Part shown: positions 5,171 to 38,687 of the stretch, piece after piece | How the letters are laid out: each line of letters begins with the position of its first letter | How positions within the stretch are numbered: position 1 is the stretch's first letter | Origin: Bacteroidota bacterium | GTDB lineage: Bacteria; Bacteroidota; Bacteroidia; Bacteroidales; CAIWKO01 | Reading direction: 5' to 3' | NCBI GenBank assembly: GCA_037128515.1 | Contig: JBAXWF010000004.1 | Location: 38,319 to 102,318 of the forward strand | Length of the DNA stretch: 64,000 nucleotides | Made by a program: the position numbers and the translations under genes | Notes under the pieces: model-generated | Seen by the model: only the letters and a program-made list of their open reading frames with translations | What the model was told of the DNA's origin: nothing | The model's database searches: none

Positions 5171-5427
5171 AGGTACACCAAGTTTTTTCGTGTAAAATTC
5201 GTTATAAAAAAAGATAAATTACAATTATGATTTAGAAAAAGTTTTTTATCATTTTAAACAACTTTTTTTTAATAACTTACGTAAAACTTAATAACTTTCT
5301 TATATTTGTAAGGAGTTTTGATTTTTTTTAAAAATAAACAGGCCGTAAACCTTGAAAATTGGTAAAAAAACAAAAAATTGGTTCTCGTTTGATTTTGTAC
5401 GATTGATTTAATAAAAAACACAAAAAC

Positions 5428-8115
5428 ATGAAGAAAACATTAAACTATTCAACATTAAAAATAATAATTGGTGCTATTTTATTTTCGATGATTTCGATAA
5501 ACAGTTGGGCACAATTAACCGTTAGCACTGCCATGACACCAGCACAGATGGTTCAAAATGTGTTGACTGGCACTGGAGTTACGGTAAATAATATCACTTA
5601 TACAGGTACGCCGGGATCGATAGGTGTTTTTACCACCGGTGGCACACCAACCAATTTGGGTTTGACCAGTGGTATTTTGATGTCGACAGGATTGGTGACA
5701 GGGACCACGCCATTGAGTTTGCCTCCGGCAATAGGATGTGCGGCAACGAACTTTGAATCGTCGATAAACAATTCGGCAACAGATGCGGATTTGCAGGCAT
5801 TGGTAACCCCCCACATTTCGGATGCAGCGGTATTGCAATTTGATTTTTTTCCTTTGTCGGATACTATTAAGTTTAGATATGTGTTTGCCTCGGAAGAATA
5901 TCCTGAATTTACGTGTTCGACCTTTACGGATGTTTTTGGTTTTTTTGTAAGCGGACAAAATCCGGCAGGAGGTAATTATGTTAGCAAAAATATTGCCTTG
6001 ATACCCGGAACCATATTGCCGGTTGCTATTAATACTGTGAACCCGGGACCTGGAGGTTCGGGCTATGATCCGAGTGGTTGTATTTCGACAGCTTACAGTA
6101 TGTATTATGTTGATAATACGGGAGGGCAAACCATCGTTTTTGATGGGTTTACCACTGTTTTAACTGCTTGGTGCCGGGTGGTGCCTTGTACACCATATCA
6201 TATAAAACTGGCAATAGGTGATGCCGGAGATCAATCGTATGATTCGGGTGTTTTTTTGGAGGCAAATAGTTTTTCAACGAGTGCGGTTACCATGGAAACG
6301 CATTTTAGCACGCCACTGGCTTCGACAACAGATGCAATAGAAGGTTGTAATGATGCTATAATTACGTTTAGTTTGCAGAATCCACAACCGTCAGCATATA
6401 CAGTTATATATAATGTTGGAGGAACCGCCACGAATGGCACAGATTATACAACAATACCAACTAGTGTTACCATACCTGCGGGCCAGGACTCGGTGAATTT
6501 GGTAATTCATCCGTTTATGGATGGAGTGGTGGAAGGTACTGAAACAGTACAATTAGTATTTCAAACGAGTATTTGCGGGGCGAGCGATACGCTTACGGTG
6601 AATATTTTAAACAATAATCCATTTAGTGTTACATCGAGTAACGATACCGCTATTTGTTCGGGATCGGCTACAATATCAGTGACACCAACAGGTGGCTTGT
6701 CGCCATACACGTATTTGTGGAATAACGCTGCGGGCACCAATGCGTCGGCAGTGGTGTCGCCGGCAAGCACCACAACCTATAATGTTACGGTGACGGACTT
6801 GTGTGGTTCTACAGCAACCCAAAGCGTTGTTGTTACGGTTGGAGCCAGTAATGCAAATGCCGGACCGAATGATTCGATATGCGTGGGGCAAACCTCCACA
6901 TTGACGGCAAGTGGCGGTGCTTCCTATTTGTGGAGCACGGGAGACACAACCCCTTCGATATTGGTAGGGCCACTAACAACCACTACTTATTATGTTACCG
7001 CAACAGGAACTTGTCCTTCGGCTGATTCTGTTATAGTGTTTGTATTTCCATTGCCAGTAATTTCGGCAACTGCAACACCTTCGTCGATATTAATGAGCCA
7101 AACATCCACTATTTGTGCCTCGGGCGGGAATACGTATTCGTGGACAGCCAATCCACCGGATCCCTCGTTGGCAGGTCAAACAAGCAGTATTTGTCCGGTT
7201 GTTACTCCATCGGTTACAACAATATATTTGGTTGTTGGAACCGATATTAATGGTTGTCAAAGTTTTGATACAGTTCGCGTGTTTGTTGTGCCCATTTTAC
7301 CCATAGTTGATTTTTATGGAGCCCCATTGAATGGTTGTGAACCATTGATAGTGCAGTTTCAAGACAGTTCGATGAAAACGGTTCCCGGAACCACCTATTA
7401 TTGGGATTTTGGCAATAACACGTTTTCCTATCAACAAAATCCAACAGCCTATTATGATCATGCCGGCACATATGATGTTACAGAAATTGTGACCAATCCG
7501 GGTGGGTTTACATCGCAATTGACAAAAACGAATTATATAACGGTTTATCCCAATCCCGTTGCCATATTTTCGTCGGTACCCAATGTGGCAGAAGCCTATG
7601 ATCCGAATTTTAGTTTTTACGATTATTCCTTAGGATATCCAACGCAATGGTATTGGACTTTTGGTGATGGAACGTATGATACAGTTCAAAACCCACACCA
7701 TAGCTATTCAGAACCGAGTGTTTATTATAATTTTCATTTTTTTGAAGATACCGGAGCTTACAATGTTACCCTTGTTGTTTCGACAAATCATGGTTGTACG
7801 GATTCTATGTCGAAAACTGTTTGGGTAGCACCCTCGTATGCAATTTATGTTCCGAATGCGTTTACACCAAATGACGATCCAAGCAATCAACTTTTTTGTG
7901 TTACAGGATATGGTGTGCTTGAAACAAATTATTCTATTCATATTTATAATCGTGTAGGTCAATTGATTTATACAAACAATGTTTGGGGAGAATGTTGGGA
8001 TGGAACCATTGGAGGTGTGGATGCAGAGGAAGGGGTTTATATTTATATAATCGAATTTATGGATACTCAGAATGTGATACATCATTTGAGGGGCGTAGTT
8101 ACATTATATCGATAG
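5428..8115 (+). CDS. Secreted adhesin-like protein: choice-of-anchor-L-like N-domain, Ig-like and PKD repeats, T9SS type B (gliding-motility) C-terminal domain
   Basis: Signal peptide present. YVFASEEYPEF..DVFGFFVSG..AIGDAGDQSYDSGVFLEANSF block. Three Cys-containing repeats of about 65 aa (..TLTASGGASYLWSTGDTT..). PKD-like units. C-terminus is YVPNAFTPNDD...GVYIYIIEF...LYR. Confidence 0.8.
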   Translation: MKKTLNYSTLKIIIGAILFSMISINSWAQLTVSTAMTPAQMVQNVLTGTGVTVNNITYTGTPGSIGVFTTGGTPTNLGLTSGILMSTGLVTGTTPLSLPPAIGCAATNFESSINNSATDADLQALVTPHISDAAVLQFDFFPLSDTIKFRYVFASEEYPEFTCSTFTDVFGFFVSGQNPAGGNYVSKNIALIPGTILPVAINTVNPGPGGSGYDPSGCISTAYSMYYVDNTGGQTIVFDGFTTVLTAWCRVVPCTPYHIKLAIGDAGDQSYDSGVFLEANSFSTSAVTMETHFSTPLASTTDAIEGCNDAIITFSLQNPQPSAYTVIYNVGGTATNGTDYTTIPTSVTIPAGQDSVNLVIHPFMDGVVEGTETVQLVFQTSICGASDTLTVNILNNNPFSVTSSNDTAICSGSATISVTPTGGLSPYTYLWNNAAGTNASAVVSPASTTTYNVTVTDLCGSTATQSVVVTVGASNANAGPNDSICVGQTSTLTASGGASYLWSTGDTTPSILVGPLTTTTYYVTATGTCPSADSVIVFVFPLPVISATATPSSILMSQTSTICASGGNTYSWTANPPDPSLAGQTSSICPVVTPSVTTIYLVVGTDINGCQSFDTVRVFVVPILPIVDFYGAPLNGCEPLIVQFQDSSMKTVPGTTYYWDFGNNTFSYQQNPTAYYDHAGTYDVTEIVTNPGGFTSQLTKTNYITVYPNPVAIFSSVPNVAEAYDPNFSFYDYSLGYPTQWYWTFGDGTYDTVQNPHHSYSEPSVYYNFHFFEDTGAYNVTLVVSTNHGCTDSMSKTVWVAPSYAIYVPNAFTPNDDPSNQLFCVTGYGVLETNYSIHIYNRVGQLIYTNNVWGECWDGTIGGVDAEEGVYIYIIEFMDTQNVIHHLRGVVTLYR

Positions 8116-31120: not shown

Positions 31121-31291
31121 CCCTGATGGCGCGCGTTGCACCCACCGTTTACGCGCGTCACCCGACGCGTGCAGTGGTTTCTCATGCGCCATGTCAATCG
31201 TTTCAATAATTTTTTCTTGCATCATTTTACGGTAATCACTTCGCTCGAAATGAATATAAAATTCAGCAAACTACTTAACTCAACATAATTT
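31121..31291 (-). repeat. GC-rich leader module, copy 1 (171 bp)
   Basis: Aligns without gaps to 32240-32410 with 12 mismatches by hand count. It ends 10 nt upstream of the gene A start. Contains the palindromic cores ACGCGT and CGCGCG. Confidence 0.9.
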
Positions 31292-32239: not shown

Positions 32240-32410
32240 CCCTGATGGCGCGCGTTGCACCCATCGTTTGCGCGCGTCTCCCGACGCGTGCAGTGGTTTC
32301 TCATGCGCCACGATAATCGTTTCAATTATTTTTTCTTGCATCATTTTACGGTTATCACTTCGCTCGAAATGAATATAACATTCAGCAAACTAATTAACTC
32401 AGCACAATTT
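32240..32410 (-). repeat. GC-rich leader module, copy 2 (171 bp)
   Basis: See copy 1. It ends 29 nt upstream of the gene B start at 32211. Confidence 0.9.
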
Positions 32411-32673
32411 CTGGCCGAACTAAATTTTTATTCTTCCAGTTTTAATGCCAAACCTTTTTCTATAAGTAGTAGCCTCTAAAACATGGAGGCACCAAACAAT
32501 TGTAAAGGTAACAAAATGCGCTGAATCGTGTTCAATAATTTTCTATTTTTCTGACATGCGTTTAACCTAATATGATATTTTGCTGTGCACCCGTCGTGAG
32601 ATGCCCGTAGCTTAAAAATAATCCTTTCCGCACAAATCCTCCCCATCCTCCTTTCCGCCATAGCACCCCCCAC

Positions 32674-33360
32674 TCACTCCAAACCGCAATTCACAGCAAA
32701 TCGTGTAACTTCTGCCACAGTGTGCACACCCAAAATATCAAAAATCGATTGACGTATAGAACGGATAGTATTTTTTGCCAAAAACATCTTTTCCCCAATC
32801 TGCCCACTGGTCAATCCCTTGCTCATGTGTATTATTATCTCCAAATGGCGAGAATTTAATTTACTCAAAATCGGTTCGTTTATTATCCTAAAATTTTCAA
32901 CAAGCATGGCCTGCAGATTTTCAATTTTCAAAATCGGCAAACCAATATTTATAATAGTACCACGTATCATAGTCGGTTTGCGCTTCAAATTGTGTTCCAC
33001 CACCCAAGCAGTTATATAAATCCAATTCCATTGCCCATCCGGGTTTCTAAAATGATAACCCGCACCAATATCATTTTGGCAATACTGCAACTTTTCCAAG
33101 CCATTTTTCACAATATGGCAATCCACTTCCCTAAAATAAGTATTCACAAAATCGCAATTCAGCTCATAATATTCATTGGTTTTCAATCCAAATTTTTCAG
33201 CCGCCGCACAATTAAACTGCACACAAACGCGACCATTCAAAACAATTAAAAAATGTAAATCATTGATTTTGTTATTCAAAAATCGAGTTATGTCCACTCC
33301 GTGTCCATCTTCAAATGCCTCTTTTTTATAAGGCAACAGCGGTCTAAAATTATTTTCCAT
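32674..33360 (-). CDS. LuxR-family transcriptional regulator with N-terminal sensory (PAS-like?) region
   Basis: 228 aa. The C-terminal HTH LSKLNSRHLEIIIHMSKGLTSGQIGEKMFLAKNTIRSIRQSIFDILGV fits the LuxR/GerE type. The N-terminal ~150 aa are unassigned. Confidence 0.75.
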   Translation of the reverse strand: MENNFRPLLPYKKEAFEDGHGVDITRFLNNKINDLHFLIVLNGRVCVQFNCAAAEKFGLKTNEYYELNCDFVNTYFREVDCHIVKNGLEKLQYCQNDIGAGYHFRNPDGQWNWIYITAWVVEHNLKRKPTMIRGTIINIGLPILKIENLQAMLVENFRIINEPILSKLNSRHLEIIIHMSKGLTSGQIGEKMFLAKNTIRSIRQSIFDILGVHTVAEVTRFAVNCGLE

Positions 33361-33420
33361 ATCTTTTTAATAAGTAGTGTTAATAAATCTACAAAAATAT
33401 AATTTTCACAAATAGAATAA

Positions 33421-33440
33421 AAAGATGCATTTGCATCTTT
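33421..33440. promoter_or_regulatory. 20-bp palindrome AAAGATGCA-TT-TGCATCTTT
   Basis: Perfect 9-bp arms with a 2-nt centre, 61 nt upstream of the LuxR-family start in the divergent intergenic region. Confidence 0.4.
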
Positions 33441-33461
33441 TATGCCCCTACCTAAAAAGTA

Positions 33462-33469
33462 TAAATTTG
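33462..33469 (+). promoter_or_regulatory. -7 box TAaaTTTG facing the 21-bp repeat array
   Basis: Matches TAnnTTTG, 35 nt before the ATG at 33504. Transcription from here would run through the repeat array into 33933-35105. Confidence 0.35.
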
Positions 33470-33590
33470 AAAAATAAAAAAATCAAAAACCACTTTCACC
33501 CAAATGCAAAAAACACACCCAATAAATCACCACAGTAGCCACATTTTCAATACCGTTTCCGGAAATTTGGCCTATAATAATGCATTCCGG

Positions 33591-33842
33591 GCACCTCTTT
33601 CACCCAAACAGTCACCTCCTTCACCCAAATTGGCACCTCTTTCACCCACACAAGCACGTGTTTCACCCACACAAGCACCTCTTTCATCAATAGGAGCACG
33701 TCATGCACCCACACAAGCACCTCTTTCATCCAAATTGGAACGTCATCCACCCACAAAGGCACGTGTTTTATCAATATACGCACCTCTTTCACCAAAACAG
33801 GCATCGCATTCACCAAAACCAGCACCGCTTTCACTTTTCTGC
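33591..33842 (+). repeat. Tandem array of 12 x 21 bp (consensus about GCACCTCTTTCACCCAmAmAr)
   Basis: The units start at 33591 and recur every 21 nt with no indel. GCAC and TTCACCCA cores are conserved. Positions 5-10 vary (ctcttt, gtgttt, gtcatg/gtcatc) and so do positions 17-21. A partial unit lies at 33491-33505. Confidence 0.9.
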
Positions 33843-33932
33843 CCCGCTCAGCCTATTTTTTCATTCCGTAATCCTTCATCAAATCATTTCATAAACCACA
33901 AACCACAATTTATAAATTAAAATAACCACACC

Positions 33933-35105
33933 ATGAAAGCAACAGACAAACTCCACCTCAATTCCTTATACAATGTAGAAGTCGTATGCGAAGAAAACGA
34001 TGCAGCACTCCTCCTCATCCCCGAAGCCACCGTCGAACGCACCAACCTTCACAACTTCATTGTCAAACTCGAAGCCGCCAAAGCCATCAATGTGGCCGAT
34101 CTAACCTATTTGGCAATCGACAAAATGGCAGCCCAAATCGATATGCTCACCACAGTCAAAAAATACATGTATCGCGGCGCAGTCAAAGCCAACCAACTCA
34201 ACAAACCCAAAATCGAAGCAGCACTCAACAAAAAACCAACCTATTTCGTTTCAAACGACGATGCAACCATCGCCAACAAAGCCGAAGAAGTCAAAGAAAT
34301 GCTAAAAAACAACACCACCCTCCTCGTCAACATCCTTCCCGCCAACATCACCGAAATGGAAACCAAAATCCAAGCCTATCGCGATGTGCTCCTCTTGCCA
34401 CAACAAGCCATCGATAAACGAAAAACCACCGGCTCCATGATCATTAAAGAACTCGTCAAAGAATCCCTAATCCCCAAAAACAATATCGTCAAACTATTCT
34501 ATTCCTACATTTCCGAACAAACCAATGTCATCAACGAAGCCGCCCGCATCGGCAAACCGCAGGGCTCTCGCCACCTTTCCATTGCCGTTTCTTACACAGA
34601 AGCCGATACCGGCGTCCGCCTCAAAAACGTAAAAACCACCGTCACCAACGGCATCAAAACCTTCATTAAATATAGCTCCAAACGCGGAGGGGCACAATTC
34701 TATAGCCTCGATAACGACAACTACACAATCACCTCCGAGCGCGAAACCTTCATCACCAACGTTCAAACCCCAGTCGGAGTCGATGAAACCCACGTCGCAC
34801 GTTTCAAAATCATTCTCAAAAAAGAATCAAGCCCAGCCAACGATCCCGAAAAAACAACCGGATTCTACAACATCATTGTCTACGACCAGGAAACCAACCA
34901 ACCCCTGCCCGGCGTCCAGGTCTCTTTCCCCACCATACAGTATGTCGAAACCACCGACGAAGACGGCGAAAACTTCCAAGACACACTCCAACCAGCCACC
35001 CTAGCCGGAACACTTTACCTCGATGGCTACAAACAGCAAAACATCACCCTCATCATCCAAGCCGGAAAAGAAACCAAAGGCCAATTCTACCTCGAAAAAG
35101 AATAA
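33933..35105 (+). CDS. Hypothetical protein, helical N-half plus two beta-sandwich (CarboxypepD_reg-like?) C-terminal modules (island gene C)
   Basis: 390 aa with no signal peptide. The C-terminus GFYNIIVYDQETNQPLPGVQVSF...TDEDGENF...LDGYKQQNITL resembles carboxypeptidase-regulatory-like folds. Strong NNC codon bias. Followed by a clean terminator. Confidence 0.7.
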   Translation: MKATDKLHLNSLYNVEVVCEENDAALLLIPEATVERTNLHNFIVKLEAAKAINVADLTYLAIDKMAAQIDMLTTVKKYMYRGAVKANQLNKPKIEAALNKKPTYFVSNDDATIANKAEEVKEMLKNNTTLLVNILPANITEMETKIQAYRDVLLLPQQAIDKRKTTGSMIIKELVKESLIPKNNIVKLFYSYISEQTNVINEAARIGKPQGSRHLSIAVSYTEADTGVRLKNVKTTVTNGIKTFIKYSSKRGGAQFYSLDNDNYTITSERETFITNVQTPVGVDETHVARFKIILKKESSPANDPEKTTGFYNIIVYDQETNQPLPGVQVSFPTIQYVETTDEDGENFQDTLQPATLAGTLYLDGYKQQNITLIIQAGKETKGQFYLEKE

Positions 35106-35128
35106 CCACCAAAGCCCCACACCAAAAA

Positions 35129-35155
35129 GGGGCGGAGTTCACTCCGCCCCTTTTT
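35129..35155 (+). terminator. Rho-independent terminator
   Basis: Stem ggggcggag/ctccgcccc with loop ttca and a T5 run, 24 nt after the stop at 35105. Confidence 0.85.
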
Positions 35156-35396
35156 ATTATTTAAATCCCTTGCTATTAGCTATAGGCAAAAAACCCAACC
35201 TTCAAAAAACACACCGCTCCATCCTCCCCCCAAAACCTCCCTTTCCCAATCCCATCAAGCCTTTCACCACGCAGTCCTAAAATCAAAAACCGAAAAACAA
35301 AAAATAAACCGCAAAAAGGCATAGTATCTAAAAAAATAGTCATAAATTTGGTTATTATAATTCATCGAAACCCATGCAAAACAAACCCACATCAAT

Positions 35397-36125
35397 ATGA
35401 AAAAATATAAAATAAACGAAGTGGATATCGGTATCTTTTTGGAAGACAACCAGCAGCTCCTGCCCGAAAGCATTCAAAAAATGGTCCACAATTATCACAC
35501 CACCCTCCAAATTATTATAGGCATCGCCGACGATGCCTATGGCCAACTCTCCGACAAACTAGACGATTTGTTTTTCAAACAATATCCTTCAATACTAGTA
35601 AACAGCAACAACCAATTGCCCATAGAGGTGCTAATGGTTGCGGAAGATGCGGCTTGGTTCATGCCAATAAGAACCTACAAACTTATTATGGATCAAAAAG
35701 CGGGCTTGGATGTGTGCAAGCTGTATCCCCAATTTAATAAGTGGGCTACCGAGCTAAACTCAGCCCAAAAACCCATAGATGAAAAAGGCAAAAGCAAATC
35801 TGCCCTTTTGCAAATAAAATACGATGCCAAGCGCAAAAAAGAATTTATGCAGCTGGTCGAAAAAATGCTGCTCTACCAATTTCCCGCCATAGCCAATTTT
35901 AATACCAACGAACAAATAGTTTACAAAGCCCTGCTCAACCAACAATATGCCCAATACAAAGCCGATGCCGAACGCATGCAACTATTGTACGATTGTGGCT
36001 TTAGCAATGACGATATTAAGCTTTCAAAAACCGCCATCCTTAAAAAAATGAAACAACTCTCGCCCCAAAAACAAGCCGAAATCAAAGCACTTGAAGCACG
36101 ACGGAGGCAGGGCGAAAAAATTTAG
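35397..36125 (+). CDS. Hypothetical protein (island gene D)
   Basis: 242 aa, no signal peptide, mostly helical with a basic C-terminus (..KALEARRRQGEKI). A TAaaTTTG box lies at 35343-35350. No family recognised. Confidence 0.6.
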   Translation: MKKYKINEVDIGIFLEDNQQLLPESIQKMVHNYHTTLQIIIGIADDAYGQLSDKLDDLFFKQYPSILVNSNNQLPIEVLMVAEDAAWFMPIRTYKLIMDQKAGLDVCKLYPQFNKWATELNSAQKPIDEKGKSKSALLQIKYDAKRKKEFMQLVEKMLLYQFPAIANFNTNEQIVYKALLNQQYAQYKADAERMQLLYDCGFSNDDIKLSKTAILKKMKQLSPQKQAEIKALEARRRQGEKI

Positions 36126-36384
36126 GAAACCCCCGTGGCAAAAGTTTATAAAGGTGCTATTATTTCATAGCAACATGCATTAAGCTGCGGTTCAAAACAG
36201 TTTTAGTAAACAGGTCGCGCTAAGCCGTCCCAACATTTTTTGTCGGGGCATGTCAAAGCGCGAAATGGGACCTGCCAGCCAAAAATATCAACGCAGCTGC
36301 AATCCACTTCAACACGGTTTTCTTTTAATAGCGCATTAATTCAAATAATAAATTGGTAACCTTGTAATCAACAAACTACACAAG

Positions 36385-38687
36385 ATGCAAACACCAAACA
36401 AATTCCACGATAGTAAAACAACCAAAGAAAGTTCCGAATATTGGGAAACAATGTATCAGGAATTTCTTGATTTCAGGCGTAAACAGCCCCAGGGAATGCC
36501 TCCTGCAAAAATTGCAGGAGCCACCAATCCTTTGTTTACTTGGGTGCAGCAACAGCATCAGTTTAAACTTTTATTATCGGTTACACGTTTAAAAAAATTA
36601 AATGCAGCCCGATTTGTTTGGGCCACAAACGAAATAGATCCCGAATAGGAGAAGGGGTATCTCGATTTTCTAAAATTTAGGCAGGATCATCCAACGGGGA
36701 TGCCATCAGCAAAATTAAAAAAAAAGAGTAACCCACTCTATAGATGGTGTTATCTACAGCGCAGAAACAAAGATATGCTCACGGCCAACCAACTTGCCAA
36801 GTTGAAAGCTGCCGGCTTTGAATGGGAATTTAGGATAAAACTGGTGGAAGAAGTTTGGGAGAAGAACTTTGAAAACTTTGTGGAGTTTAAAAAGGAGCAT
36901 ACCCACACCATGCCTTTGTGTATGAGCAATGGGATGGTAAACCAACTCTATTTGTGGTGCAATAGCCAAAGGGTTCTAAAAAGCAAGCTTGGGTCCGATA
37001 GAATTGCGCGGCTTAAAAACGCAGGGTTTGATTTCGAAAAGCTCGAAATTTTTTCACCATGGGAACTACGATATATGGAATTTTAAACCTGGCGCAAAAA
37101 CAATCCGCATGGCATGCCAAAGAAATACAATGATGGGGTGTCATGTTCCCTGCAAGGCTGGTGTATATCACAGATAAAGAAAAAAGAACAAAAAAAACTT
37201 ACCCGGCAACAAATTACAAAATTGGACAAGGCCGGGTTTGTATGGGTAATAAAAGACCTGGATGCTACATGGGAAAAAAGGTATCAAGAATTTGTAGAGT
37301 TCAAGAAAAACAACCCCACCGTTTCGCCTCCAACCCGAATAAATGGCATAGCCAGTCCGCTTTATTCATGGTATATGCAACAGCGCGACTTTAAATACAA
37401 ACTATCGCCCGAACGCATTAGCAAACTCAATGCCGTTGGCATGAACTGGAAAAATTTTAACAATGATAAGGCTTGGGAACAGCATTTTGCAGCATTTGTT
37501 GAATTTAAGAAAAACAATTCTGAAAAAATGCCAACGTATGATAAAATCGATAAGGCAAAAAAACCGTTGTATCATTGGTGTTTTATACAAAGAAGAAATA
37601 AAATTAATGGATTGCTGTCAGAAATAAAAACAAAACGACTTGAAGCTGTAGGTTTTATTTGGGGATATTTTGATTTTGATGAGGCATGGGAGAATCATTA
37701 TAAGGACTATGTAGCCTTTATTAAAGAAAATCCCGGAAAAAAACTGGTAGAAAGTGGCAGCAAACAAGAAGGTATCATTAGCCGATGGTGCTCAAGGCAA
37801 CGGTCTCGTAAAATTAAACTGTCGCCAGAACAAATCAAAAAACTGGATGATTTGGAATTTGTTTGGGAAATACTTGTGGGTAAACAGGATTTGACTTGGG
37901 AAAAATGGTTTCAGCAATATCGTAGTTTTTTAAAAAACAATCCAACAGGGATACCTCCGTATAAAATAAACGGTAAAACAAATTTCTTAAATGTATGGTA
38001 TGTGAAACAATGCCAAGGAAAAAAGTTGTTATCAGAAAATCAGATAAACAGATTGAACGAGGTCGGTTTTGTTTGGCAGATAAAAAACAAAATAGAAAAA
38101 TGGGACTCCATGTTCTGCAAATTTGTCGAATATAAAGAAAGCAAAGATGCAGGGAAACCTACTTTCCTAACACCAGCACAGCCTAAAAAGATTCAAGATT
38201 GGTGCAGCACGCAACGAACAAATAAAACGAAACTAACTGCCGAGCAAATCAAAAAACTGAATGATGCAGGTTTTAGTTGGCAAGAAAAAACAATGATCAA
38301 AACTGGGAAAATTTTTATTTGCAATATCTTGCGTTTAGGGCAAACAAAACAAAGGGCATGCCAGATGCTTTTCTGCATGGCAAAGCAAATCCGCTGCACT
38401 CCTGGTGCCGCCGAATGCAAAAATTTAAAAATAAACTCTCGGCCGAAAAAGTTCAAAAACTGAATGATGCAAACTTCGAATGGTATTTTTTTATTCCCGA
38501 TAGGATGGAGTTTTATAACGAGTTTCTGGAATTAAAGAAGCAATCCAATAATGTCATTAAGGAAAGAAACAATCCGGTTCAAAAGAAAACCATATATGAA
38601 TGGATTCAGGAACAAAGAGATAAAAAAGAACTACTTTCACCTGAGTATATACAAAAACTGAATGAGGCCAATTTTGATTGGGGTTAA
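36385..38687 (+). pseudogene. Array of 11 helicase-associated (HA) domain-like repeats, interrupted by two in-frame stops and one frameshift
   Basis: Repeats of about 65-70 aa: W-E-x2-[FY]-x2-F-x2-F-K-x-N-...P-...-PLY-x-W-x3-QR-...-L-x3-QI-x-KL-x3-GF-x-W. TAG at 36646-36648 and TAA at 37084-37086 are in frame with the flanking ORFs. The frames switch at the A6 run 38285-38290. Confidence 0.65.

Follow-up and report, generated by a model that had tools for sequence, protein, structure and literature searches.

Architecture of the repeat locus

We analysed a 64,000-nucleotide stretch of a Bacteroidota metagenome contig (JBAXWF010000004.1, positions 38,319 to 102,318; hereafter the window, whose own numbering is used throughout), in which an array of 21-bp tandem repeats lies upstream of a protein gene that we call gene C. 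An earlier note on this DNA had weighed two readings of the array, a set of cis-acting sites and a micro-protein built of heptads. The array sits within an open reading frame (ORF) that precedes gene C on the same strand and is referred to here as the leader ORF (uORF). A 12-kb stretch at the locus was found to be identical in a second, independent assembly. In what follows, W denotes the window locus, L0xx the other loci and P0xxx the members of the protein family. The features on which the analysis centres are these:

33462-33469, plus strand: promoter box TAAATTTG, fitting the Bacteroidota -7 consensus TAnnTTTG (pattern scan)
33504-33920, plus strand: leader ORF (uORF) of 138 amino acids, present in the ORF list and called as a gene in two public assemblies
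33591-33842, plus strand: array of 12 x 21 bp with consensus GCACCTCTTTCACCCAAACAG (TRF and slicing at 21-nt steps)
33933-35105, plus strand: gene C, 390 amino acids (Pfam, AlphaFold2, PDB fold searches and profile search)
35124-35155, plus strand: strong intrinsic terminator with a 14-bp stem, 8 G-C pairs and a T run (hairpin scan)

The repeat finder TRF called the array at 33590-33834 with a period of 21, 11.7 copies, 70% matches and 0% indels, and slices taken every 21 nucleotides from 33591 stayed in register, bearing out the twelve head-to-tail units without indel that the earlier note had described, together with its CACGTG motifs in units 4 and 9. Of the two cores that it had regarded as kept, GCAC was exact in 9 of the 12 units, whereas TTCACCCA was exact in only 4, with a near-match in most of the others. 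Within the W unit, nucleotides 1-4 and 9-16 were conserved and nucleotides 5-8 and 17-21 were variable. TRF also gave a higher-order period of 105 bp (5 units) in this array. As RNA, the array was not structured above shuffles (z = +0.72), and an E-value scan of 32500-36500 against Rfam returned no match in the array and only sub-threshold matches, located at the terminator after gene C; a tRNA scan gave no match.

A partial unit had also been noticed ahead of the array, and a position weight matrix (PWM) search placed it as follows:

33487-33507, plus strand: solitary unit-like copy (PWM score 11.3), overlapping the leader ORF ATG at 33504

The overlap with the ATG is real, but the copy itself is marginal, given that the 90th percentile of shuffle maxima was 10.6. 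The same search found no equivalent in the other loci, and the idea that solitary units serve as extra operator sites was dropped because this marginal W copy was all that it gave.

Two further short period-21 arrays were present in the window, at 2491-2579 (4.2 copies, 67% match) and 5225-5268 (2.1 copies); neither stands beside a gene C homologue, and both are probably unrelated to the W array. Strand composition was strongly asymmetric from 33500 to 36000 (GC skew of ~-0.34, AT skew of up to +0.30): unlike the remaining window, uORF, gene C and the next spacer are rich in C+A and poor in G+T on their plus strand.

The gene C family and recurrence of the array

Gene C comprises a novel N-terminal helical domain (residues 1-204), a beta-sandwich (217-295) and a CarboxypepD_reg-like beta-sandwich (310-387). 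The N-terminal domain is all-helical and confidently modelled by AlphaFold2 (pLDDT 91), and a PDB fold search with this domain alone gave no significant match; the whole gene C model matched only CnaB/transthyretin-like beta-sandwiches. A word-based search recovered only 8 homologues and an exhaustive profile search at least 110 clusters at E<1e-30, pointing to a large, unannotated Bacteroidota family. Its members range from 295 to 405 amino acids, many of them being of ~298 amino acids and lacking the last domain, with another subfamily of ~390 amino acids. PADLOC, PHROGs and NCBIfam hold no family for gene C, for the flanking gene D or for the uORF, and no relatives were found in the viral contigs and plasmids that were scanned.

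Upstream DNA could be read at 18 distinct loci of the family, to which the recurrence counts below refer. A TRF-detectable tandem array with a period of 21 and 8-22 copies was found upstream of the gene in 17 of the 18, and the eighteenth locus (L032) carried a degenerate array of ~18 units, with an identity at lag 21 of 0.48 versus ~0.29 at neighbouring lags. The arrays ended ~90-210 nt before the gene C homologue and were present across gene C divergence down to ~25% identity (18/18). Given that a period-21 array precedes every readable homologue, the arrays are a hallmark of the gene family and not a local oddity of W. The earlier note had argued that absence of the array from relatives would point to a neutral expansion; its presence in all readable relatives argues against such an expansion. 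Units departed from 21 bp only in L020, which has two of 20 bp, and in L025, which has one.

Unit sequences, and even their base composition, were unrelated between loci: GCACCTCTTTCACCCAAACAG in W, and ACTTCGACACCACCGCACACC, TTTCACTGAAACTAATTTTTC, GAGTAAAGGATATTGACTTTC, TTCGCACGACCGGGGAAAGGG and ATTACAGTGAGGATGTCCATT elsewhere. In a permutation test on circular unit alignments, significant similarity was confined to the close pairs L017-L024 and L030-L031, and a putative homologous core, CTTTCAC, read in different frames in W, L016, L015 and L023, was withdrawn after this test. In one metagenome-assembled genome (MAG), at least five paralogues occur together, and their units all differ. The clearest case of a core and a variable segment was L030, where 20 units combine an invariant 12-nt core with 9 hypervariable nucleotides; this core, TGGTTTCATCAC, is identical in L030 and L031, two loci at which gene C shares 69% nucleotide identity and the uORF flanks are almost unalignable.

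One homologue, P0003 (320 amino acids), is missing ~70 residues at its N terminus, and the 57 nt between it and a preceding DUF3792 gene are too few to hold an array. Truncation of this copy or a chimeric contig may be the explanation, and P0003 is the sole possible exception to the rule that an array stands before the gene.

A predicted transcription unit spanning array and gene C

The box TAAATTTG was the sole plus-strand TAnnTTTG match between the divergent regulator gene (see below) and gene C in W. Of 10 loci covered by the same pattern scan, 8 had a plus-strand box 89-324 nt 5' of the array, and in the array-to-gene gap the scan found no box except meaningless matches overlapping the ATG. 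Because the promoter box lies 5' of the array and none lies in the array-to-gene gap, the array most probably belongs to a long transcribed leader. A hairpin scan of the interval between array and gene C (33843-33932) found no terminator-like site, and the hairpin at 35124-35155 is predicted to close the uORF-gene C transcription unit.

Frame, start and maintenance of the leader ORF

In W, the uORF consists of 29 non-repeat codons, 12 heptads (84 codons) and a tail of 25 codons. Gene C follows in the same frame, its ATG lying 12 nt beyond the uORF stop, with nothing but one TAA and four codons between the two ORFs. In six loci the first ATG of the frame was spaced exactly 36 or 42 nt from the start of the promoter box (42 in W; the others being L003, L016, L017, L019 and L024), and the uORFs of L016, L017 and L024 all start with MKN. 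The frame that is open in the array stayed open for 20-86 codons 5' of it in 13 of 14 testable loci, an openness of the 5' flank beyond chance (combined Fisher p = 2.5e-5). Past the array the uORF continued for 11-66 codons, its stop lying at most 36 nt from the gene C ATG in about half of the loci, and total length ranged from 120 to 240 codons. What the earlier note had proposed as a plus-strand ORF reading the array as APLSPxQ heptads was thus found in its general form, that is, an ATG-started frame through the array, downstream of the promoter, in most loci and longer than expected by chance; the APLSPxQ heptad itself had no counterpart elsewhere.

The uORF was in frame with gene C in 12 of the 18 loci (binomial p ~0.004, ignoring relatedness) and in 10 of the 11 loci of the ~390-aa subfamily. 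A natural fusion, P0128 at L029 (a long-read assembly), joins 17 heptads to a gene C homologue without a stop; such fusions are rare, being 1 of ~130 full-length family matches. The simplest reading is that the family would go back to a protein whose N-terminal repeat region was later split off. Under this split-protein reading, the in-frame arrangement would have been kept since frameshifting indels in a maintained uORF are selected against. Read-through between uORF and gene C is unlikely, TAA being the stop that intervenes, often more than once. Stop-codon reassignment or read-through by a phage suppressor was also considered and rejected, as TAA accounts for nearly all of the stops, runs of two or three are frequent and nearby genes use the standard code.

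Peptide divergence and copy-number turnover

The peptide encoded by the arrays shows no constraint at the amino-acid level. The heptads read APLSPKQ in W and HHFDTPA, FTETIFS, NRTIHSW, VKDIDFR, YSEHVHY, VLLYILC, SADDNDR, SADDFPT, NSAGIGA, LKWFHHG and GKGSHGR at other loci, with chemistry unrelated between loci (Pro/Ser-rich, acidic, Gly/Lys-rich or fully hydrophobic) and with no peptide motif common to them. The substitution check by codon position that the earlier note had suggested turned out negative for purifying selection on the peptide, with no excess at third positions: the pooled variable states were 67/68/62 for positions 1/2/3, and within-array diversity was 20.8/20.7/18.2. The synonymous fraction in the uORF frame was not above that in the other frames, and this held likewise in the old, degenerate array of L032. 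Position-specific base composition weakly favoured the uORF frame, which was best in 9 of 17 arrays. The hydrophobic a and d positions and helix-compatible residues of a coiled coil were lacking, APLSPKQ having two prolines and heptads such as GKGSHGR, SADDNDR and NSAGIGA occurring elsewhere.

Array copy number turns over fast, on strain timescales. L020 and L025 are ~99.8% identical outside the array, gene C (969 nt) differing at 2 synonymous sites and the flanks at 0-3 positions, and their arrays comprise 17.3 and 9.3 units, respectively. The 188-nt difference includes a 20-bp unit. The L025 uORF starts at the same ATG but leaves the array in a different frame and ends at a different stop, with the C-terminal third of the peptide altered. 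The single ORF of L020 reads the unit in three phases (GKGSHGR, ERVRTTK and GKGFARL). The earlier note had held that unit-length changes not divisible by three would refute coding; the 20-bp units of L020 and L025 are such changes, but the ORF stays open through them, and translation is not cleanly refuted.

This polymorphism refers to L020 and L025; the two loci that represent the window's own population (L001 and L002) are identical. Short-read assemblies break at the 21-bp repeats: L003 has a run of N at ~5430-5570 between two 21-bp arrays, and contigs end within arrays in L004, L012 and L014. Because of these breaks, copy numbers from short-read assemblies, possibly including the 12 of W, may be unreliable.

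Neighbouring genes and the upstream palindrome

Two features lie upstream of the promoter box in W:

32674-33360, minus strand: divergent regulator of 228 amino acids with a C-terminal LuxR/GerE helix-turn-helix (Pfam GerE, E=2.5e-6; NCBIfam response-regulator helix-turn-helix)
33420-33441, no strand assigned: perfect 10-2-10 palindrome AAAAGATGCA-TT-TGCATCTTTT (AAAAGATGCATTTGCATCTTTT, 22 bp; inverted-repeat search and hairpin scan)

The palindrome is centred ~44 nt 5' of the predicted transcription start, between the divergent LuxR-type gene and the promoter box, and is not conserved in the closest relative, L003. It is a candidate operator of the LuxR-type neighbour, for which it would be a better fit than the non-palindromic units. 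An adjacent regulator was found in W and L003 (GerE) and in L016 (LytTR), and in most loci there was none. Flanking genes differed in every locus, neither gene D nor the LuxR neighbour being conserved, and the neighbours of W are chromosomal housekeeping genes. As all other flanking genes vary between loci, the gene order points to the array and gene C as the conserved module, with the LuxR-type regulator merely a neighbour.

Some family members adjoin genes of the defence-island type. At L029 (5846-9281) these encode an NYN RNase, a MazG-like product and a Schlafen-like helicase; at L030 (1-2609) they are AbiGi and an AAA_21 ATPase; and at L022 (371-3403) there is a 1010-aa Sacsin/HATPase and NOV_C protein. 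Other loci of the family stand beside cargo genes of the type IX secretion system, and no neighbour was consistent across loci.

Weighing the explanations

We tentatively favour, as plausible though short of probable, a reading in which the array is the repetitive body of a translated leader ORF that acts in cis on gene C. The TAnnTTTG promoter at 33462, a 5' untranslated region of ~25 nt, the ATG at 33504, the 12 x 21 nt, gene C and the terminator at 35124 would form one unit, in which the passage of ribosomes through the leader up to the start of gene C is what matters. Translation of the uORF would couple to expression of gene C, or would protect a long unstructured leader, and units of seven codons would let unequal recombination alter leader length without breaking the frame, the peptide product itself being largely irrelevant. 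More speculatively, the periodic, lineage-specific core might be a recognition site, on RNA or DNA, for a cognate factor, and this factor might be the gene C product, giving cooperative autoregulation; the gene C product comes into question because it is the only lineage-specific candidate encoded in the module.

Several observations weigh against this account. By our estimate, with a stop probability of ~0.07 per codon, a 21-nt unit is free of stops in at least one of three frames ~94% of the time by chance; openness of the array itself is therefore uninformative, and only the flanks and the start position count. Codon usage in the uORF flanks is intermediate between that of real genes and that of off-frame sequence. 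In the P0007 clade (L012, L017 and L024), the uORF starts normally and meets stops from about the third unit, and yet arrays of 9-12 units are kept; their persistence implies that full-length translation is not universally needed and that the array may act independently of translation. If frame-keeping were the sole constraint, periods of 18, 24 and 27 nt would be expected, and none occurs. Taken together, the period of always 21 and the arrays that persist with a truncated uORF suggest a nucleic-acid or structural constraint behind the array. As to binding by gene C, its N-terminal domain has no known fold, and its net charge is approximately neutral by residue count.

It is also conceivable, if rather unlikely, that the uORF product is itself functional, either as a fast-evolving heptad-repeat micro-protein (for example, a multivalent partner binding one gene C molecule per heptad) or as the split-off N-terminal repeat domain of gene C. 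This would explain why the ORF is maintained, the frequent in-frame arrangement and the natural fusion P0128, and it fits a 'WFHH' read in the same frame in L030 and L031, the weak preference of base composition for the uORF frame (best in 9/17 arrays) and the possession of its own repeat by each paralogue, as expected of cognate pairs. However, a selected peptide is hard to reconcile with arrays that show no third-position or synonymous excess, L032 included, with heptads so diverse in chemistry between loci, with the three-phase reading of L020 and the exchange of the C-terminal third of the peptide in L025 without other divergence, or with truncation of the ORF in the P0007 clade and the rarity of fusions (1/~130). 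We regard as unlikely a self-addressed module in which the protein, one protomer per 21-nt unit, would bind cooperatively to its own repeat RNA, DNA or peptide. If true, paralogues in one genome would be kept orthogonal by their divergent unit cores, and the module would be a new cognate repeat-protein pair, analogous but unrelated to type III toxin-antitoxin pairs, with an array that is translated and a repeat isoform possibly fused to, or split from, the N terminus. Action of the array as RNA, in which the cognate gene C protein would bind, and might also process, single-stranded sites of 21 nt in a type III-like or sponge fashion, seems less probable still. Promoter, tandem repeats and protein gene do lie on one strand, and units of fixed length have a lineage-specific sequence, one MAG holding at least three orthogonal paralogues. 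Every unit combines a conserved core with a variable segment, arrays are kept even with a truncated uORF, and some loci (L030, L029 and L022) are beside defence-type genes. Set against this, array and gene are not separated by a terminator, the RNA lacks structure, the size and number of units (21 nt x 8-22) are unlike those of type III systems, gene C has neither a nuclease-like or ToxN-like fold nor a PADLOC match, and a significant leader ORF is not expected of a non-coding antitoxin.

A DNA element, in which the units are phased sites for a LuxR-type or LytTR-like DNA-binding protein and serve as operator, roadblock or iteron-like array, is in our judgement improbable. LytTR proteins bind 9-bp direct repeats spaced 12 bp apart, and the exact 21-bp phasing (two helical turns) in nearly all loci, the conserved core and variable spacer of each unit and the regulators adjoining W, L003 (GerE) and L016 (LytTR) are what such an element would offer. 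But most loci have no adjacent regulator, the units are non-palindromic, the place classical for an activator site is taken in W by a separate palindrome, the promoter stands 5' of the arrays, solitary sites are lacking elsewhere in the loci, plasmid or replication context is absent, and the maintained ORF is left unexplained; moreover, cores differ between paralogues of the same genome, each of which would need its own binder. The earlier note's suggestion of an iteron-like or LuxR-binding array accordingly found no support as far as the LuxR neighbour is concerned, with the regulator present in few loci, the units non-palindromic and the array 3' of the promoter; some other factor may recognise the unit cores at the nucleotide level. 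Phased A-tracts as a source of DNA curvature were discarded, such tracts occurring in some arrays and being absent in L003, L018, L027 and L028. A neutral minisatellite kept by unequal recombination, with the ORF a by-product of a stop-free unit, would account for the fast turnover of copy number, for higher-order periods of 42, 63, 84 and 105 bp, which are typical of unequal crossing-over, and for the unconstrained peptide. It is very unlikely, given an array in 18 of 18 readable loci with gene C identity down to ~25%, its constant position relative to the gene, strongly non-uniform conservation within the unit, and non-repeat flanks of the ORF that are open beyond chance. A multi-core precursor of a ribosomally synthesized and post-translationally modified peptide, or of a pheromone, was rejected, since a conserved leader, a modifying enzyme and a transporter are all lacking and the peptide is unconstrained.

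The earlier note had also pointed to a reading of the array as VWVKEVx heptads on the opposite strand:

33547-33834, minus strand: ORF of 95 amino acids with a GTG start (ORF list)

This ORF exists as described, being open in W from its GTG, and minus-strand frames are open in 11 of 16 loci. That it is a real gene is hardly credible: no open frame runs through the array on this strand in the remaining 5 of 16 (L003, L015, L021, L030 and L032), minus-strand ORFs have short flanks in general, the W ORF starts inside the array with flanks of only 4 and 14 codons, and no suitably placed minus-strand promoter box was found. As a conserved feature it was rejected.

Comparison with known systems

We found no prior description of the architecture of array and gene C in the literature or in family libraries. 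In layout, the closest known systems are the type III toxin-antitoxin loci (toxIN, cptIN and tenpIN), which likewise consist of a promoter, tandem direct repeats and a co-oriented protein gene, keep repeat length within a family with a sequence that differs between members, and may occur as several orthogonal copies per genome, some of them in defence-island surroundings. Their repeats are of 31-62 nt in 1.9-5.6 copies (PMC3401426). The arrays described here differ in having units of 21 nt x 8-22, compared with 31-62 nt x 1.9-5.6 (PMC3401426), in lacking a palindromic terminator between repeats and gene (33843-33932) and RNA structure, and in lying within a maintained ORF. Gene C, with its helical domain and beta-sandwiches, is not an endoribonuclease of the ToxN, CptN or TenpN kind and has no toxin match in PADLOC, Pfam or NCBIfam.

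Leader peptides such as those of tnaC, mgtL, his and trp share with the uORF a start near the transcription start, a position in the 5' leader and an end shortly before the regulated gene, and, under the translated-leader reading that we favour, the act of translation would outweigh the peptide product in both. Known leader peptides are of ~10-40 codons and non-repetitive, whereas the uORF is of 120-240 codons, about tenfold longer, repetitive and hypervariable; they also rely on stalling motifs or alternative RNA structures, neither of which was found here, nor was a terminator. Iterons and related phased arrays (plasmid origins, centromeres of the parC/parS type, LytTR sites of 9+12 bp) resemble the array in their direct repeats of ~21 bp, exact phase and division into core and spacer. 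Plasmid iterons are phased direct repeats of ~17-22 bp, a range into which the unit falls. They differ from the array in setting, which is chromosomal here and has no link to replication or partition, with the array in a region that would be transcribed and translated under the favoured reading; there is no Rep domain, ParR-type gene or plasmid match, and the regulator neighbour is not conserved. A lux-box-like operator is a site of ~18-22 bp near -40 of the promoter that it regulates and has dyad symmetry, which the units lack, and the units lie downstream of the promoter box; the 22-bp palindrome of W fits that description instead. With contingency loci the arrays share a copy number that differs between near-identical strains (L020/L025) and alters the frame connection of the uORF. 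In all other loci, by contrast, unit length is a multiple of three, so that a change of copy number normally keeps the frame, and the units are far longer than the classical repeats of 1-7 nt.

The feature would, on this comparison, be a new variation on a translated leader or tandem-repeat element; if the arrays should be private recognition sites of their own proteins, it would be a new kind of system. The combination of an invariant 21-nt period in at least 18 lineages with unrelated units, a maintained ORF whose peptide is unconstrained, and strain-level change of copy number was not met in known systems. If the translated-leader reading is right, a regulatory or partner architecture common to the whole family has been overlooked by annotation, in which gene callers mark the repeat ORF as 'hypothetical' or choose the wrong strand. 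The loci would then provide a test case for long translated leaders in bacteria that lack Shine-Dalgarno-led initiation, and for tandem repeats as tunable, frame-safe expression elements or private binding arrays. A 21-nt array together with a gene C family member is a simple genomic signature by which further examples can be sought.

Other repeats in the window

Three successive ORFs of 87, 128 and 449 amino acids at 36385-38463 consist almost entirely of HA domain repeats (PF03457); the 449-aa ORF has five copies of this 'helicase-associated' domain, and no helicase domain is nearby. Upstream of the locus, a direct repeat of 171 nt was found at 31121-31291 and 32240-32410, with an offset of 1119 nt and 93% identity between its two copies. 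Both copies span the region where a minus-strand ORF starts, the two ORFs beginning MMQEKIIETI...HEKPLHASGDARKRWVQRAPSG, and the repeat may have arisen by duplication of a promoter or leader, or may be a small mobile element.

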